64,000 nt of DNA from an uncultured Acidobacteriota bacterium (GTDB lineage Bacteria; Acidobacteriota; Vicinamibacteria; Vicinamibacterales; UBA8438): positions 160,001-224,000 of the forward strand of contig CAJWLU010000003.1 in assembly GCA_913043225.1 (NCBI GenBank), read 5' to 3'. The translations under genes were made by a program, and so were the position numbers. Position 1 is the stretch's first letter, and each line of letters opens with the position of its first letter. A model generated the notes under the pieces. The model was given only the letters and a program-made list of their open reading frames with translations, was not told the origin of the DNA and made no database searches. Below are positions 31,217-38,183 of the stretch, in pieces.

Positions 31217-32985
31217 CGGCGCCCCCCTTTCAGGCTGACGCCGGCAAGGCTGGCGTCGCTGTCACAGCGGCTACGTTCGTCAGGCTGCCACCCCATGATC
31301 TGGCGCATCGCTGCCTCGCCTTGAGTGATTAAGTCACCGATCCAGCGAGCAAATAGCGGGTGGGGAGCGAAGCCAGCTCCGATCTGCACTCCGTCGAGGT
31401 CGCTGAGTTCGTACTGGGATGGGCCGGTCCCGGTCATCCGGGCTGGAATGGCCAGCACTGTCCGGCCGAGGGCTCGTTCGGCTTCAATGATGCCGTGGAT
31501 CTGGGCCTCGGCTTCCTCGCGGGCGTCGGGCCAGTCTTCTCGCCAGTTGGCCCAGTGGAATGCCGCGAAGTTCGGTTCGTGCTCCTGCATCTGCGAGGCG
31601 ATCGACTCAAGGTTCTCCAACCACGCCGCGTTTCCCTCGTCGCTGCCCGCACCGTGACCAAGGAGCAGCACGGCCTCCTGCGAGGGATTGTTAGAGAGGG
31701 CTCGGGCGCGCGCCGCGAGCGCCTCCGCAAATGCCGGGTGGTCTTCCAGGCCGCCAAGGGTGGCGAAGATCGCCGCAGAGCGCACCCGAGGGGGTGGTCC
31801 CATGCCCATGGACATGCCCGGTTCATCGCCGAGCCCCATCAGATACTCGATGCGGTCGAGAAATGACGCTGCTTGGGCGAAGACCCGAATGAGCACGATG
31901 GCCCGCGCACCGCGTTCTTCCAGGCGTGAGACGGCTCGACCGAGCACGACCGGGTCGGCCATCGAGAAGGCATATTCGACCAACCGGCTCTGGGTTAACT
32001 CGGCGAGCGGCTGGCGAATCGACTCGTTCCAGTCGATGTCGGCGCCGTGCGGCATCAGCACGTACCCGATCTCGTTGGCTGTGGGTGGAATCCAGCGATT
32101 GGCCTCTTGGGCCATCCAGACTGTTGCCATGGGGTCTGGGATGACCCCTTGAGCGAGGAACTCCACCGAGACCCCGGCAAGGCTCCTACGTAGGGAGCCG
32201 TTCAGGTCCATCATCGAGTCCATGCGGGAGCCCAGGTGCCAGGGGATCACCAGGACGCGATCATGGGCTTTGGCCAGCGCGTCTGCAGCTGGTCGAATCC
32301 GGTCGAGCGACGATTGGAGTTCATCGAAATCACCACTGGGTCCTCGTACCACCACGACGTCAGTGGCTGCGAGCCCAGTTGCCCGGCTAACCCTCCCGAG
32401 AGTGTCTGATAGGTCAGCTTCCATGGCGGAAGTCGAGCTTGCGTCGACCGCTCCGGAGCCGACCACGAGGACCGCGACGTCCGGTGGAGGGGCCCCGGGC
32501 ATACCTGGTCGCACGCCTGCGGTAGAGAGGCGCTCAATCAGGATCTCTTCGGCCAGATACGAAGCTCCGAACGGGTCCGCCACGGCAATGTCTAGTCCGG
32601 TGTTGTTGATGGCGTCGTGGACCCGCACCAGCAGGGGGTGAGTACCGGCCAGGAAGAGCGGCAGTGCCGCGATCTTAGATGCCCCGTTGAGGCGGAGACG
32701 CTCTATCGCAGGTGAGGCGAAGCGCATCGGGTCACCGTCCCACGGAAGGAATGCGAGTTCAGCCCGGAAGGCTTCTGAGAACTTGCGAAACGCATCGCGC
32801 ACTTCGTCGTTTCCGAGAAATCCACGGTCTGGGGCCACGACGAGGAAGCCGACCTGACCAGGATCGGCCGGTGGTACCAGTCGCGGCACTCGGGTTTCCA
32901 TGACGTGCTGCGCTGACGTCGTGGTTCCGGCAACCACAATGAGGGCGAAGAATGCCGCGAGGTAGCGTATGGGCAGTCTGGTCAT
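31204..32985 (-). CDS. Exported tandem CbiX/SirB-like (class II chelatase fold) protein
   Basis: Signal peptide ending TSA-Q; GFLVVAPDRG, IAALPLFL, YVLMPHG, VEYAFSMAD, EAVLLLGHGAGSD, FAPHP. Confidence 0.7.
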   Translation of the reverse strand: MTRLPIRYLAAFFALIVVAGTTTSAQHVMETRVPRLVPPADPGQVGFLVVAPDRGFLGNDEVRDAFRKFSEAFRAELAFLPWDGDPMRFASPAIERLRLNGASKIAALPLFLAGTHPLLVRVHDAINNTGLDIAVADPFGASYLAEEILIERLSTAGVRPGMPGAPPPDVAVLVVGSGAVDASSTSAMEADLSDTLGRVSRATGLAATDVVVVRGPSGDFDELQSSLDRIRPAADALAKAHDRVLVIPWHLGSRMDSMMDLNGSLRRSLAGVSVEFLAQGVIPDPMATVWMAQEANRWIPPTANEIGYVLMPHGADIDWNESIRQPLAELTQSRLVEYAFSMADPVVLGRAVSRLEERGARAIVLIRVFAQAASFLDRIEYLMGLGDEPGMSMGMGPPPRVRSAAIFATLGGLEDHPAFAEALAARARALSNNPSQEAVLLLGHGAGSDEGNAAWLENLESIASQMQEHEPNFAAFHWANWREDWPDAREEAEAQIHGIIEAERALGRTVLAIPARMTGTGPSQYELSDLDGVQIGAGFAPHPLFARWIGDLITQGEAAMRQIMGWQPDERSRCDSDASLAGVSLKGGRRCDR

Positions 32986-33123
32986 AACGTCTCTCTGCGT
33001 TGCACGTCACGACCCCAGTTGCCTGTGATGCGGGCGGGTGTCGTCACGCTCTTCGTGCGGTCGGCCCTTCTGGACCAAGCGCTCGACCAGCTCGCCGGGT
33101 GCTGCTACACCTAGCGGACTGTC

Positions 33124-33152
33124 TTGATATTGAGAATGAGTCTCAATATCAA
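33124..33152. promoter_or_regulatory. Fur-family operator box 1 (upstream of the chelatase-propeller-receptor operon)
   Basis: Perfect 12-5-12 inverted repeat ttgatattgaga-atgag-tctcaatatcaa. Confidence 0.8.
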
Positions 33153-33200
33153 CATTAAGGTGAACTGTATGTCCGACCGAATCGGTCGGTCAAGGAAAAA

Positions 33201-34415
33201 TTATTTGAGGCGAGAGCGTTCGTGGTGGGATCTCAAGAGGCCCTCTCTTGCGAGTCGCCGAATCAGTGTGAGGTTTCCTGCGGTGTCGAGCGGACCCGGG
33301 AGTTCAAGGGCGGTAAACCTTTCATTAGCACAGATGAACTCGATGGCTTCGGCGACATGGAGCGGGAACCGCAACTCCTGCCCAGCGAAGCACATCACGC
33401 ACTCGTTCTGCGAGAGGTACGAGTGGATGGCCATCTCTCGTCGAATGACCACCGTATCCTCGTTCACCAGATGCTGGTCGGCCCGCTGAGTCAGAAGGTC
33501 TGAGAAAAGCGGTTGATTGGCCGCAGATACCTCACTGGCAAACCGTCGCCAGACATCCTCAAAAGAGCGATCGAGTGCCAAGTCAAAGTGCTGGCGAGCC
33601 AGGGTCGCGGTCTCTTCTGGTGTGAGTTTCCCACTCGCGAAACCGACTGGGAGGTTGGCGCGGAGGGCTGGGTTCTCGAGGGCTGCGGCCGACACTGCGT
33701 CGGCGAGAAAGTCAGCCCATGTAAAGGCGGTCAATCCGAGGGTGATGTGAAGAGAAGCGGTATCGACCGACCGCGCGGCATGCATCAGTCCTCGCGGAAG
33801 ATAGACGAAGTCGCCCGCATGAAGATCGAACTCGTCGATTGTGCGCCCAGGGCGATCGACGTCCGGATTGCACTTCTGCCCTCGCAAGGGCAGCGCGATC
33901 GGGCTCTCGAAGACACTCCACCGTTTTGAGCCGCTGACTTGCATCACGAAGACGTCGTGGGTGTCCCAATGGGGCTTGAACCCTTGGGCCTCTGGGGGCG
34001 TGAGATAGATGTTGGTCTGGATGCGGGAACCGAAGCGCTGCCCCAGCGCGACGCAAAGCGCCGCGAGTTGGGGGAGGCGACGATGGAGCCCACGAAAGAT
34101 GACGGTCGCGCCTTCGTCGAAGAGGCGCGTCACTTCCAGCGGTTCGGCTACCCCGGCTGGGCCGGTGAACCGGCTGGCGTCGATGGCGGTCTCGTCGGCT
34201 CGCACTAGTGAAATGTCAGGGAAGCGGAGCGCATGCGTCCCCAGCACGTGGTCCAAGTCGGCGAAGGTCAGGAGCGACTCGAAGTAATTGGGCTGTTGGC
34301 GGTGGACGACCCGGTGTCGTCGCTCGTAGAACTCATCCTCGAAGGTTGAAGTCGAGAGCGGATCGAGTAGCCAGGCGTACGGAGCGTTGGCGATGGGCGG
34401 CGTGTGTGGCTTCAT
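33201..34415 (-). CDS. JmjC/cupin_4 Fe(II)/2-oxoglutarate oxygenase (NO66/YcfD-like)
   Basis: NIYLTP, FKPHWDTHDVFVMQVSGSKRW (HxD, K), YLPRGLMHAA (distal H); C-terminal winged-helix-like LIRRLAREGLL. Confidence 0.88.
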   Translation of the reverse strand: MKPHTPPIANAPYAWLLDPLSTSTFEDEFYERRHRVVHRQQPNYFESLLTFADLDHVLGTHALRFPDISLVRADETAIDASRFTGPAGVAEPLEVTRLFDEGATVIFRGLHRRLPQLAALCVALGQRFGSRIQTNIYLTPPEAQGFKPHWDTHDVFVMQVSGSKRWSVFESPIALPLRGQKCNPDVDRPGRTIDEFDLHAGDFVYLPRGLMHAARSVDTASLHITLGLTAFTWADFLADAVSAAALENPALRANLPVGFASGKLTPEETATLARQHFDLALDRSFEDVWRRFASEVSAANQPLFSDLLTQRADQHLVNEDTVVIRREMAIHSYLSQNECVMCFAGQELRFPLHVAEAIEFICANERFTALELPGPLDTAGNLTLIRRLAREGLLRSHHERSRLK

Positions 34416-34477
34416 GGTGTCGCCTGGCCGCTGCGCGAGCGCCAGCCCGTCGACGCTCTGTCTGGGAAGGCCTGGCG

Positions 34478-34945
34478 CTACTGATGAAGCTCGACGCCCT
34501 GGGCGACGAAGCTTACTTCGGTTGCCGTGCCGTCAGGGTTTCGAGTCAGCGCGACACCCTCGGCGATGAGGTGATCCGCGTCGGCTTTGGAGAAGACGTT
34601 CGTTTCCAGGCGGCCTTCGAGGCGAGCTCGTTGTCCGGCTGAGTCCGTGGGGACGAAGAAGGCGTAGTCTCTGAAAGTTACCCGGATTCCACGGTCGTCG
34701 CCAGGCCTGACTAACTCCATCCAGCAGCCCTTGACCTGACAGACCCGCTTGACTTCTCCCTCGAGCGTCAGCAGACGATCCGCATACTGGTCAGCCTGTT
34801 CGACAGCTTCGTCAAGCCCAATCGCTGGGGAGCCGCCGAGCCTGGTTCCTCGGGTCACGATGTTCTGGGCGGTGGCCGAGCCTATCGAAAGCACTGCGGC
34901 GATGGTGAATGCGCTGATCTGACGAGTAGGGCGTAGTGATATCAC
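34478..34945 (-). CDS. Exported DUF4920-like protein (OB fold)
   Basis: Signal peptide ending ATA-Q; VCQVKGCWMEL, RVTFRDYAFFVP. Confidence 0.8.
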   Translation of the reverse strand: MISLRPTRQISAFTIAAVLSIGSATAQNIVTRGTRLGGSPAIGLDEAVEQADQYADRLLTLEGEVKRVCQVKGCWMELVRPGDDRGIRVTFRDYAFFVPTDSAGQRARLEGRLETNVFSKADADHLIAEGVALTRNPDGTATEVSFVAQGVELHQ

Positions 34946-35054
34946 CTAAGGTCCCTTCTGTGAGCGTCGGACAGAGCTTTAGCATAGCAGAAGCCGATCC
35001 GACCGCGAGGTGAGCGGTGAGGTCTGTGCAAGCGTACCTAAGAGTTTTTGATTT

Positions 35055-35084
35055 ATTGAGATTGAGACTCAGTCTCAATATGTT
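35055..35084. promoter_or_regulatory. Fur-family operator box 2 overlapping a sigma70 promoter, between the divergent DUF4920 and flavodoxin genes
   Basis: Perfect 9-1-9 attgagact-c-agtctcaat (35061-35079) plus an extra attgag hexamer; + strand TTGAGA-17-TATGTT. Confidence 0.8.
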
Positions 35085-35094
35085 ATATGTAGAG

Positions 35095-35184
35095 ACCCAC
35101 CTGCCGGGTAGGTGGGTGTAGCGGGATATCGGGGAAAGGGGACCCCAGATAGATGCCCGTGGGGCGAGGCAACGCCCCACGGGC
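35095..35184 (+). ncRNA. Candidate structured sRNA or 5' leader with three hairpins
   Basis: acccacctgcc/ggtaggtgggt; tatcgggg/cccc-a-gata; perfect 12-bp gcccgtggggcg/cgccccacgggc; begins about 10 nt after the -10 box. Confidence 0.35.
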
Positions 35185-35361
35185 CGTCGAACCTGCATCG
35201 GCCGTCTGAGAGCGAATCAAACGGGTAACCAGCGTCGTCCGACCTAGCGAATGTAGCACACCGTTGGACGGCTGCTGCGGCCACTTTCTGCATGCGTGCA
35301 TCTACGGCGGACCAGGTCGAGGATCAGCACGGTGTAGCTACTTCCCCAAGGACCTCAATAC

Positions 35362-35922
35362 ATGGAAGCGTCAATCGCCATCTTCTTCGGATCCACCACC
35401 GGCAGTACACAGATGGTCGCGGAAAAGATCCGTGATCTCCTGGGTGAGCGGCTCTCTCACCTCGCCGATGTGAACACGGCGGAAGCGTCTGAACTCGAGC
35501 AGTACGACGTGATCTTCTTCGGAGTGCCAACGTGGAACGTTGGTGAGATGCAGGATGACTGGGCCGATTTCATTCCCAATATGTCGGAACTGAACCTTGC
35601 AGGAAAGAAGGTTGCCTTCTTTGGGGTTGGCGATGCGGTCGGCTACGCCGAGAACTTTCTGGATGCTATGGGCGAGCTCTGGGCGGCCGTGTACGCACAA
35701 GGCGCGCCGACACTGGTAGGCGTGTGGCCGACCGACGGATACGTGTTCGAAGCATCGAAAGGGCTTTACGACGACAACCATTTCCTCGGCGTGGGTCTCG
35801 ACGAAGACAACGAATCTCACCTAACAGATGAGCGACTGGACCTCTGGCTTGCGCAGGTGCTCCAGGAGCTGGCCTTGGTTGAGGCCGCAGGAGAGGCCGT
35901 CGACGAGGCGGTTGCTCAGTAG
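35362..35922 (+). CDS. fldA: Long-chain flavodoxin
   Basis: [52 protein letters not shown]. Confidence 0.95.
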
Positions 35923-35950
35923 CCGTTGGTGCTATGCAGGAAGGAGAATA

Positions 35951-36556
35951 ATGATGAACTACACCGGGCCCAAAGTGCGTCTGAGTCGAAAGCTGGGCGT
36001 CGCCCTGACCCCGAAGGGGCAGGTGGCGATGGAGAAACGGCCGGGGCGACCTGGCCAACATGGTGGGATGCGTCGCCGCCGGCAGGAGACGTCTTACGGA
36101 AAACAACTGCTCGAAAAGCAGCGTCTACGCTTTCAGTACAACGTACACGAACGTCAGATGCGCACCTACTTTAAGCGGGCGATGCGGAGAGAGGGACCGA
36201 CTGGAGATAACCTCGTTCAGCTTCTCGAATCGAGACTTGACGCCCTCGTATATCGGGCGGGTTTGGCCCGTACGATCTACGCGGCACGTCAGTTCGTTAA
36301 TCACGGCCATATCGACGTCGATGGCAAGCGTGTCGACATTCCCTCCTTCAGCGTTCGCATCGGCCAGACCGTTGGAGTCCGAGAGAAATCCCGTCAGCTG
36401 GATTGCTTTCGGGACGGACTGGGACTAGAGAGCGCGCCTGCCTATCTGAGGGTGGCAGACACCGAGCTTTCGTTCACGAAAGACCGCGAGCCGGAAAGAG
36501 ACGAAGTTCCGGTCATTTGTGACGTTCGCCAGGTGGTCGAGTTCTATTCCCGCTGA
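35951..36556 (+). CDS. rpsD: 30S ribosomal protein S4, zinc-ribbon-less (C-minus) form outside the alpha operon
   Basis: [62 protein letters not shown] aaggag. Confidence 0.96.
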
Positions 36557-36830
36557 CGTCTGTTTTTGGGTCGAGTCTGGCTCAGCTAACTGGTGATGAC
36601 CAGCTGGAAGGGGTGTGGTTGATGTCGTTCGGTAGTTCTCCGAGCTGCCAGTGTTGATAGTAAGGCTGTTGACGATTCGAGACTCGTCCTTGTCACGCGT
36701 GCGACGCTGCTGATGAGGGCGGGGCGTAACTCTGAACGGCGAGCGTCGGTCAACGGCCGCTAGCCGGGTTCTTCAGGAATTTCCGTGACTAGGCCGGACC
36801 AGAATAAGTATCCGGCTCCCACGAGAGCGT

Positions 36831-37136
36831 CTAACGGGCCGCCGCTCGTTTACCGAAAAGCCTACCGACAGCTTGCATCCGCTGCCAGAAAAAGTCGAAC
36901 TGCCCGAGCAGCGTGCCGTACCCGATCAGGAAGAGGTGATACATCGGAACCATCACCACGAGGTAGACGGTCCACTGTACCCATCTCTGGGCATCCGGCG
37001 GTAGCAGGAAGGCGATGAGTGGAGCCTTCACCAGTACCGTCGACGTGCCAGCCAGCGAGAAGGCCACCAGGACGGCGACGGTGCGCCAGAGTGTCAAGCG
37101 CCAGCGCTCCTGCATGCGCTGCAGGGTCGCTTTCAT
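36831..37136 (-). CDS. Small membrane protein (DUF6787-like)
   Basis: LVAFSLAGTS, PMYHLFLIGYGTLLGQFDFFW; TAATG overlap with the upstream peptide gene. Confidence 0.75.
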   Translation of the reverse strand: MKATLQRMQERWRLTLWRTVAVLVAFSLAGTSTVLVKAPLIAFLLPPDAQRWVQWTVYLVVMVPMYHLFLIGYGTLLGQFDFFWQRMQAVGRLFGKRAAAR

Positions 37137-37342
37137 TACTGAGAGTCGCTATCGGAGTCTGTGCCGTCGCCGCCGCTGCTCGGGCAGGCCGCCGTCATGG
37201 CCGCGCTCACGCCGATGGCTCCGGCGATCACCGTCTTGGCCAGGAATGAGCGCCGGTCCACGCGGGCCGTCTGAATGTCGCTGTCGGACAGCGTGGCGGT
37301 CCCATCCTTCAGTTTCTTCGCTTCCGGGTGTCTGGTCGTCAT
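37136..37342 (-). CDS. 68-aa Tat-signal/lipobox precursor with an acidic Ser/Asp tail
   Basis: RBS aggag 9 nt before the ATG; DRRSFL twin-arginine motif, hydrophobic stretch, TAAC lipobox, tail CPSSGGDGTDSDSDSQ. Confidence 0.75.
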   Translation of the reverse strand: MTTRHPEAKKLKDGTATLSDSDIQTARVDRRSFLAKTVIAGAIGVSAAMTAACPSSGGDGTDSDSDSQ

Positions 37343-37400
37343 TGGTCTTGTCTCCTGATTGTCCGAAGGCATCGGCCTAGCTTGACCGGCACCTCGAGTA

Positions 37401-37442
37401 GCATGTAATTTACACCGTATGAGATTGAGACTCAATCTCATA
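37401..37442 (-). promoter_or_regulatory. Fur-family operator box 3 overlapping the promoter of the Tat peptide gene
   Basis: Perfect 12-1-12 tatgagattgag-a-ctcaatctcata (37418-37442); minus strand TTGAGT-17-TAAATT. Confidence 0.8.
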
Positions 37443-37681
37443 TTTCTCTAGTGAAATCTGCCCTGAGTCCATTCCTCGAGGGGGTGTGCATCCAGCCGGT
37501 TGAAACCTCGCAGGCCGGCGACCTGCTTTTCATGCCTCGGCGACAGATGAGGTCGACAATCCAGAGCTTTCTGCCTTCGATCTGGGCGCCCTGATTCTAG
37601 AGGTCGCCTGGGGACAGCTTGCTGGCGAGCGTGCCGAACTGAGTAGCGTCCATTTGCTACAGTGAGTTTCGACGAAAAGGG

Positions 37682-37769
37682 TGGTGCGGAAGGGGGGATT
37701 TGAACCCCCATGAGCCATTGGCTCGCTAGCCCCTCAAGCTAGTGCGTCTGCCAGTTCCGCCACTTCCGC
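37682..37769 (-). tRNA. tRNA-Leu(GAG)
   Basis: gcggaag...cttccgc-acca acceptor; ctagc-ttGAGgg-gctag anticodon arm; long variable arm; ggttcaaatcc T-loop; downstream of secG. Confidence 0.97.
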
Positions 37770-37796
37770 TCGGGTGGGTGCGGTGGGTGCACCGCC

Positions 37797-38183
37797 CTAC
37801 TGTGGTGCGGCTGGTGTGTCTGCTGCTTCCTCGGAGGTTTCGGCCGGGGCTTCCGCCGGCGTGTCTGGCGCTGGAATCTCGACCGGCGCGGTCGCCGGCG
37901 CGGCGGTCGGTAGGCCTGGGCCGTCGACGCCGCTCAACACCGATCCGGTGGAACTTTGCCCCGTGATGGCGAGTGCCATCGCCCCCACCATAAACAGAAT
38001 GCCGAGCACCGTGGTGGCCCGTGTCAATACCGTGGCGCCGGCACGGGCGCCGAACGCGGTCTGACTGCCGCTTCCGCCGAAGGCGGCCGCAATGTCGCCT
38101 CCTTTGCCCTGCTGCATCAGCACAACGGCCACGAGCAAGAGACAGGTAACCACGTACAGTGCGTTGAGAAGAATGCCCACCAT
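37797..38183 (-). CDS. secG: Preprotein translocase subunit SecG
   Basis: VLMQQGKGGDIAAAFGGSGSQTAFGARAGATVLTRAT. Confidence 0.95.
   Translation of the reverse strand: MVGILLNALYVVTCLLLVAVVLMQQGKGGDIAAAFGGSGSQTAFGARAGATVLTRATTVLGILFMVGAMALAITGQSSTGSVLSGVDGPGLPTAAPATAPVEIPAPDTPAEAPAETSEEAADTPAAPQ

Follow-up and report, generated by a model that had tools for sequence, protein, structure and literature searches.

The fld-rpsD2 Locus

The stretch of DNA analyzed here (the window; 64,000 nucleotides (nt), contig CAJWLU010000003.1 of assembly GCA_913043225.1, positions 160,001 to 224,000 of the forward strand) comes from an uncultured Acidobacteriota bacterium of the order Vicinamibacterales, the genome of which is referred to as G000. 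It carries a flavodoxin gene (fld), followed on the same strand by a gene for a cysteine-free paralog of ribosomal protein S4 (rpsD2). Both lie behind a predicted Fur-type operator (box 2, 35055-35079; coordinates are those of the window unless a contig is named).

The gene fld (35362-35922, + strand) codes for a flavodoxin of 186 amino acids (aa) (Pfam Flavodoxin_1, E 1.3e-21). It is assigned to the long-chain type because it scores above the cut-off of the NCBIfam model TIGR01752 flav_long (196.4 vs 146.75 bits); its score with the short-chain flavodoxin model is under the cut-off of that model. It is the sole Flavodoxin_1 gene of the genome (3.85-Mb assembly, 96% complete).

The gene rpsD2 (35954-36556, + strand) codes for a Cys-free (C-) paralog of bacterial ribosomal protein S4 with a length of 200 aa. 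The protein is a full-length S4 (PF00163 Ribosomal_S4, 83 bits; PF01479 S4 domain, 56 bits) and passes the S4 equivalog cut-offs end to end (NF003717, 239.7 bits with a cut-off of 116; TIGR01017, 209.8 bits with a cut-off of 177.2). The distance from the end of fld is 28 nt when the first ATG is considered (35951, the alternative start) and 31 nt for the second ATG (35954). A strain variant found in three marine metagenomes (35952 T>A) abolishes the first ATG, and the true start is thus probably at 35954 (MNYTGPK..., 200 aa). This codon is preceded at 7 nt by AAGGAG, the ribosome-binding site carried by the spacer between the two genes (35923-35953, + strand). No promoter-like or terminator-like site was found when this spacer was scanned. 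The arrangement suggests that fld and rpsD2 form a two-gene operon. A sequence-only reading of the window, made before this analysis, had already placed the two genes on one strand, 28 bp apart, behind box 2, and the gene calls agree with it, except that the spacing is 31 nt to the probable start.

The 5' leader between box 2 and fld (35090-35361, + strand) is long and structured. The RNA fold computed for 35090-35365 (276 nt) has -121.8 kcal/mol and a z of -2.99, with one of 200 shuffles being as good. This region contains a perfect 13-bp GC-rich hairpin. An Rfam scan of 32900-37800 matched only a tRNA and left the leader without a match.

A Four-Cysteine Primary S4 and a Cysteine-Free Paralog

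A genome-wide search found exactly two S4 genes. The primary copy (rpsD1, G000:C1:409605-410234) is on another contig and is part of the arrangement rpsM-rpsK-rpsD-rpoA (alpha operon), being located between rpsK and rpoA. Its product has four cysteines in the N-terminal region, while there are none in the first 45 residues of the rpsD2 product; the two proteins share 41% sequence identity. That the S4 gene of the window is outside the alpha operon and lacks the cysteines, as had been claimed from the sequence alone, is thereby confirmed. The alpha-operon gene was sought and found with four cysteines; the genome thus has an rpsD besides the window copy, and its primary S4 is not a C- form. The same pairing of a cysteine-containing (C+) primary copy with a Cys-less paralog occurs in three other genomes (G004, G064 and G076).

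Among proteins with a solved structure, the closest relative of the primary S4 is S4 from Thermus thermophilus (phmmer, 1fjg_D and related chains, 253 bits). The N-terminal 36 residues are nearly identical between the two, and all four cysteines of the primary S4 align one-to-one, both proteins having the motif CxxC-x13-CxxxxC. In the available text of a 2023 paper in Nucleic Acids Research (PMC10450194), the four-Cys site of T. thermophilus S4 is said to coordinate an Fe4S4 cluster, as modelled in PDB 4Y4Y, in agreement with the assignment given in the sequence-only reading. By analogy, the primary S4 considered here may also carry a [4Fe-4S] cluster. In this comparison, it should be kept in mind that T. 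thermophilus is a thermophile of hot springs while the present organism is from seawater.

Operator Boxes and a Conserved Iron Regulon

Box 2 (ATTGAG-ATTGAG-A-CTCAGT-CTCAAT) consists of two direct hexamers, a spacer base and two inverted hexamers. A promoter-like site on the + strand (TTGAGA-17-TATGTT, 35056-35084) overlaps it. Two further boxes are found in the window. Box 1 (33129-33147, ATTGAG-AATGAG-T-CTCAAT) lies ahead of a - strand operon that codes for a CbiX-like protein of the exported type, a beta-propeller protein and a TonB-dependent receptor. Box 3 (37418-37442, TATGAG-ATTGAG-A-CTCAAT-CTCATA) lies ahead of - strand genes for a small twin-arginine translocation (TAT)-signal protein and a DUF6787 protein. 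We take the hexamer-array layout of the three boxes to be the classical Fur-box geometry. Such sites are far more frequent than expected: a 17-mer with up to three mismatches occurs three times in the window (0.04 expected), and exact copies of the core TGAGA-N5-TCTCA number 10 across the genome, where base composition predicts 1.3. One of the core sites is located 33 nt ahead of a gene for a FeoA-FeoB fusion protein, and several of the other genes next to core sites have no Pfam family.

A sample of 41 genomes from the same family or order was analyzed for conservation. A second S4 gene is present only in G000 and G004, with the rpsD2 copies being 73% identical, and fld is restricted to the same two genomes; the other 39 have neither. 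(The two S4 matches in G027 are adjacent pieces of one gene.) G001, which belongs to the same genus as G000, lacks both fld and a second S4, but its assembly is just 77% complete. In G004, the flavodoxin gene is located 32 nt upstream of that for the S4 paralog, and the flavodoxins are 62-65% identical (65% over 162 aa; 62% over 179 aa; 63% in the search of the 41 genomes). The fld leader is not conserved between the two genomes and cannot be aligned, with the exception of a 27-nt stretch containing box 2, which is 100% identical ahead of fld-rpsD2 in G004. Both genes are under purifying selection: relative to G004, rpsD2 has a ratio of nonsynonymous to synonymous differences (pN/pS) of 0.22 and fld one of 0.32, synonymous divergence being saturated.

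The core pattern has nine sites in G004, compared to one for a control pattern, and four compared to none in G053, a genome from another family. The boxes in G004 precede orthologs of feoAB, of a gene pair coding for a 467-aa protein and an NHL protein, of the CbiX-like//DUF6787 genes (including the locus orthologous to box 1, L243), of a gene for a 170-aa protein, and of fld-rpsD2, so that five box-gene pairs are common to G000 and G004. In G053, the same box occurs at the feoA-feoB promoter. Thus, the box is found ahead of feoAB in three genomes and ahead of the CbiX-like/TonB-receptor operon, and is conserved at orthologous loci. Because the same box precedes feoAB and uptake orthologs across genomes, we conclude that it is a conserved operator of an iron-acquisition regulon, with fld-rpsD2 as a conserved member. 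Iron control of fld-rpsD2, which would involve the binding of Fur, is strongly indicated by this conserved regulon.

G000 codes for only one Fur-family protein (G000:C2:25727-26710; positions 1444-2427 of locus L009). This protein (327 aa) joins a Fur domain to a rubrerythrin/ferritin-like domain at the C-terminus, and its gene directly follows an IscA/ErpA-like gene for iron-sulfur cluster assembly. With the NCBIfam models for Fur, Zur and PerR, it scores 72, 61 and 53 bits, respectively, which is under the equivalog cut-off in all three cases.

Pairs of C+ and C- ribosomal proteins are usually Zur-controlled, according to the available text of two papers (PMC3087516, PMC11672702). In a case of classical zinc sparing, the regulator would be a Zur, and rpsD2 would replace a zinc-ribbon S4 in low zinc. 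The regulator also matches the Zur model, at the score given above. However, the operator was not found next to zinc-uptake genes or further C- paralogs; its neighbors are feoAB, the TonB receptor operon and the flavodoxin gene. A search of the genome for ZnuA found none. The ribosomal proteins L31, L33, S14 and L36 are each encoded by a single copy, which is C+, so that S4 is the only one among the five tested ribosomal proteins with a metal site that has a Cys-free back-up. In addition, no Zur sites were seen at S4 paralogs by Chen et al., as stated in the available text (PMC3087516). A zinc-sparing role of rpsD2 is therefore unlikely, given the missing ZnuA, the single Fur-family gene and the single-copy C+ genes, and we consider it highly improbable and the weakest of the alternatives weighed here. 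The claim, made from the sequence alone, that control is by iron rather than by zinc is supported by comparative genomics, which places the operator in an iron regulon and not in a zinc regulon.

A Proposed S4 Replacement under Iron Limitation

We propose the following sequence of events. When iron is sufficient, the single Fur-family regulator would repress fld-rpsD2 by binding to box 2, which overlaps the -35 element and the spacer of the predicted promoter. Upon iron shortage, fld-rpsD2 would be derepressed together with feoAB and the TonB-receptor/CbiX-like uptake operon. The flavodoxin would then replace iron-sulfur ferredoxins, and the Cys-free S4 would be available to newly built 30S subunits instead of the four-Cys, metal-binding primary S4. 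S4 is a primary 16S rRNA-binding assembly protein and, for this reason, replacement would proceed via new assembly. That the rpsD2 product enters 30S ribosomes would follow from its equivalog scores, from its close relatives being sole-copy S4 proteins (see below) and from purifying selection. If the site in the primary S4 holds a [4Fe-4S] cluster, as in T. thermophilus S4, the swap may spare iron.

This proposal, at the core of which fld-rpsD2 is an operon under Fur repression that provides flavodoxin and a Cys-free S4 when iron is low, is put forward with moderate confidence. A more far-reaching version is more speculative, and we offer it only tentatively: every ribosome would normally carry an S4 with a [4Fe-4S] cluster, and iron starvation would, by Fur-type release of the operon, lead to iron-free new ribosomes. 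The sequence-only reading had arrived at much the same interpretation. As a whole, it is partly supported, with the computational checks all being favorable.

Several observations weigh against this interpretation. They concern the nature of the metal site, the position of the box, the identity of the regulator, the type of protein encoded by rpsD2, the rarity of the gene pair and its expression. With respect to the metal site, the four-Cys site of S4 is taken as a zinc site by Chen et al. (2009; PMC3087516, available text). The other points are detailed in the following paragraphs, together with the alternative explanations that they may favor.

The distance from box 2 to the ATG of fld is 282 nt, with the long, structured leader in between, and reaches about 650-690 nt in G004. 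The start of a divergent DUF4920 gene (34478-34945, - strand) is much closer to box 2 (109 nt), and the box might serve this gene instead. It is followed, also behind box 2, by a JmjC_2 ribosomal-oxygenase-like gene (33201-34415, - strand). Under the corresponding alternative, the box would control only the DUF4920-JmjC pair, and fld-rpsD2 would be transcribed from its own, nearer promoter and would not be regulated by iron. We consider this quite improbable. The fld locus of G004 has the identical 27-nt box even though it lacks a DUF4920 or JmjC gene, and the divergent gene in that genome has a second box of its own. Moreover, the promoter-like site which overlaps box 2 is on the strand of fld. 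It is probable that the DUF4920 and JmjC_2 genes belong to the same regulon.

The regulator is under the cut-off of the Fur model, and its rubrerythrin domain could mean that peroxide or oxygen is sensed. The operon might thus be a back-up for oxidative stress, with the regulator being PerR-like or responding to both iron and peroxide, and with fld and rpsD2 replacing oxidation-sensitive ferredoxins and the Cys4/Fe-S site of S4. The sole Fur-family protein has the rubrerythrin domain at its C-terminus and matches the PerR models as well as those for Fur and Zur (all under cut-off). A Cys-free S4 would resist the oxidation of thiols or of a cluster, and in enterobacteria the flavodoxin gene responds to oxidative stress as well. 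This alternative is nevertheless distinctly unlikely in our view, as the box precedes feoAB (in three genomes) and the TonB-receptor operon, which points to iron acquisition and not to peroxide defense. No gene of the catalase, AhpC or Dps type was seen beside the 10 core sites, many neighbors of which have no Pfam family.

Distribution and Origin of the S4 Paralog

The frequency of S4 paralogs was determined in a phylum sample of 301 genomes and in a larger sample of 401 genomes (the unpublished genomes G188, G089 and G066 contribute only to the denominators). Two S4 matches were obtained for eight of the 301 genomes. In two of these (G191 and G246), they represent duplicated or fragmented alpha-operon copies, while six genomes have a C+/C- pair (G000, G064, G076, G159, G312 and G330); G004 is from the sample of relatives. 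In every C+/C- genome checked, rpsK and rpoA flank the four-Cys copy, and there is at most one cysteine (0-1) in the paralog.

A fld gene beside an S4 paralog was encountered only in G000 and G004. No iron-related neighbors were found for the paralogs of G076, G159, G312 and G330. Likewise, no fld gene lies beside a C- S4 gene in any of 80 genome-contig loci or in any of 80 metagenome loci. The latter were retrieved by a metagenome search with rpsD2 and are all at most 49% identical to it, so that close relatives are missing among them. The linkage of flavodoxin and S4, which the sequence-only reading would have surveyed across the phylum, is therefore present in two genomes but is not general, as it is missing from 39 of the 41 relatives and from these 160 loci. 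This rarity adds to the points against our proposal.

A maximum-likelihood tree was computed for 44 S4 sequences. The paralogs from G000 and G004 group together (100/99). They belong to a clade (96/92) which also contains the paralogs from G064 and G076 and the sole-copy S4 from a Thermoanaerobaculia metagenome-assembled genome (MAG), an Eisenbacteria MAG and the genus g161. This rpsD2 clade is sister to sequences from Nocardiopsis and Marinactinospora and is far from the alpha-operon C+ clade. Its members occur in 13 of the 401 genomes, and nine of these are sole copies from one genus. One member, from G347, has no iron-related neighbors. The best matches of rpsD2 in genome contigs (L040, 57%; L041, 54%) are sole-copy S4 genes without fld. 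As the closest relatives of rpsD2 (L040, L041 and the genus g161) are sole-copy genes, its product is, judged from these sequences, of the ordinary working S4 type and not a specialized one, which is a further point against our proposal.

The GC content of fld and rpsD2 is 58-59% (genome mean 64%), and the GC content at third codon positions (GC3) is lower than in rpsD1, rpoA, tpiA and pgk. In the relatives, the JmjC gene and the TAT-protein/DUF6787 genes are divergent neighbors, with box-like sites between them in three of nine loci. In G000, the fld-rpsD2 cassette sits between these genes. The position in the tree, the low GC and GC3 values and the neighbor layout in the relatives together suggest that the cassette was acquired and was inserted into an already iron-regulated locus.

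The same observations can be read differently, with rpsD2 as a hitch-hiking or redundant gene: together with fld, a C- S4 gene of foreign origin would have been transferred horizontally into a locus already regulated by iron, where rpsD2 would be co-expressed with fld but would serve no metal-sparing purpose. The position of rpsD2 in the out-of-operon C- clade, far from the alpha-operon C+ clade, its low GC and GC3 values (below those of housekeeping genes), and the insertion between genes which are divergent neighbors around the box in relatives all fit with this. In a variant of this alternative, the paralog would act outside the ribosome as an S4-type translational repressor that slows the alpha operon in low iron; in E. 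coli, S4 is known to repress this operon. However, two genera have retained the combination of fld, rpsD2 and the box, with protein identities of 62-73% and a pN/pS of 0.22 for rpsD2, whereas decay would be expected of a copy without use. The rpsD2 product also scores as a full-length S4 equivalog, as a working ribosomal protein would. Overall, we regard a hitch-hiking or regulatory copy as unlikely, albeit the least unlikely of the alternatives to our proposal.

Three genomes deserve separate mention with respect to their S4 genes. In G064 (L216, G064:C158, 4060-5306), a gene for a metal-dependent repressor of the DtxR/MntR family comes next after the C- paralog, in the same orientation. As a link to iron, this gene was discarded as weak, since its score is nearest to MntR and under the cut-off; the family-level sample around G064 comprises two genomes. 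The only S4 detected in G029 (L012, G029:C31) has no cysteines and is encoded outside the operon. It clusters (98/93, long branches) with the C- paralogs from G159, G312 and G330 (L213-L215), which represent a second and more divergent type. In G053, the sole S4 keeps three of the four cysteines, and its gene is divergent from feoA-feoB (L221, G053:C207, 2223-5540), with the promoter box being TTATTGAGACTGAGTCTCAATTG.

Relation to Known Systems

Metal-free alternative ribosomal proteins are a textbook zinc-sparing device. Examples are Zur-controlled C- paralogs (L31B and L36B in E. coli; S14, L31, L33 and others in B. subtilis, Streptomyces and mycobacteria). The system described here resembles these in having a Cys4 primary protein encoded in a ribosomal operon and a paralog without cysteines, the gene of which lies outside that operon and is preceded by an operator of the Fur family. 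The logic is presumably also the same, namely to keep up ribosome production or to free metal in times of scarcity. It differs in that S4, the protein concerned, has a primary role in rRNA binding and assembly and is not small and peripheral, in that the operator belongs to an iron regulon, and in that the partner is a flavodoxin instead of COG0523 or znuABC. Also, other C- paralogs are missing (L31, L33, S14 and L36 were tested), and ZnuA was not found.

Fur-regulated flavodoxin is an iron-sparing substitute for ferredoxin, cyanobacterial isiB being an example. As in such systems, a long-chain flavodoxin gene is located behind a Fur-type operator, in a regulon with iron uptake. In contrast to them, it is in a predicted operon with a gene for a ribosomal protein.

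S4 paralogs were analyzed by Chen, Roberts and Luthey-Schulten in 2009 (PMC3087516, to the available text of which the following statements refer). S4 was sorted into C+ and C- forms, and 26 genomes were reported to have more than one S4 gene, mostly an alpha-operon C+ copy plus an out-of-operon C- copy. For the out-of-operon C-(IV) paralogs, the phylogeny points to transfer and not to recent duplication, as it does for rpsD2. Two-copy Acidobacteria are not listed. It was concluded that S4 paralogs are regulated differently from the zinc paralogs. Clostridium S4 paralogs rise in sporulation, and no other regulator of the paralogs was found there. The words "iron" and "flavodoxin" have no occurrences in that text. 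In a literature search confined to main texts, no link between an S4 paralog and Fur, iron or flavodoxin was encountered. In the available text of a Fur review and of a 2024 metallostasis review, only Zur-controlled paralogs are discussed. Nitrosomonas europaea has a C+/C- pair according to Chen et al., and ribosomal genes are not mentioned in the Fur paper on this organism (PMC3050691).

Thus, no iron-controlled counterpart of the zinc-sparing ribosomal paralogs is described in the literature searched. If the more far-reaching version of our proposal is true, fld-rpsD2 would represent the first iron-sparing switch of a ribosomal protein and the iron counterpart of the zinc-sparing C- paralogs. 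S4 paralogs, with no Zur sites nearby, have been an unexplained exception since 2009, and the locus ties a Cys-free S4 to a flavodoxin and to a conserved iron regulon. This would account for S4 paralogs, alone among the C- paralogs, being devoid of Zur sites. It is tempting to speculate further. If ribosomes carry an iron-sulfur cluster, they could constitute a substantial sink for iron in seawater poor in this metal, and ribosome remodeling could be part of the iron economy of marine bacteria.

Neighboring Genes, Habitat and Transcripts

Among PDB entries, the protein encoded by the JmjC_2 gene matches best NO66 and MINA53, two ribosomal histidyl hydroxylases (E 7e-31 to 5.5e-29); YcfD, the arginine hydroxylase acting on L16, is matched less well. 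It was considered whether this gene is part of a "ribosome remodeling module", but this was rejected. The gene is present in 14 of the 41 relatives and does not co-vary with fld-rpsD2, and for this reason it is not counted as belonging to the cassette.

The genes for the TAT-signal protein and the DUF6787 protein (36831-37442, - strand) run convergent to rpsD2 and are located behind box 3. The former protein has a twin-arginine-like signal (RRSFLAKT). The DUF6787 gene, alone or as part of the pair, is also found beside a box in G004 and beside the JmjC gene in relatives. Apparently, this unit belongs to the core of the iron regulon.

At least 60% of the words of the window were found in each of 17 DNA runs, and these are without exception marine, seawater or plankton metagenomes (two of them may be the source of the assembly, and six rows name no study). 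Strain variants with about 99.2% identity keep the whole locus. In one marine metatranscriptome, a contig of 168 nt matches 35770-35932 with 100% identity, thus covering the 3' end of fld and 10 nt of the spacer. This is weak evidence that fld is transcribed, with a possible carry-over of DNA, and the contig does not bridge to rpsD2, so that it carries no information on rpsD2, on co-transcription or on iron.

In three marine metagenomes, contigs that are unrelated to the window on both flanks match only the box regions (35049-35083 and 33125-33151; 25-35 nt with one to three differences). Therefore, the same operator is present at other loci or in other organisms of those communities.

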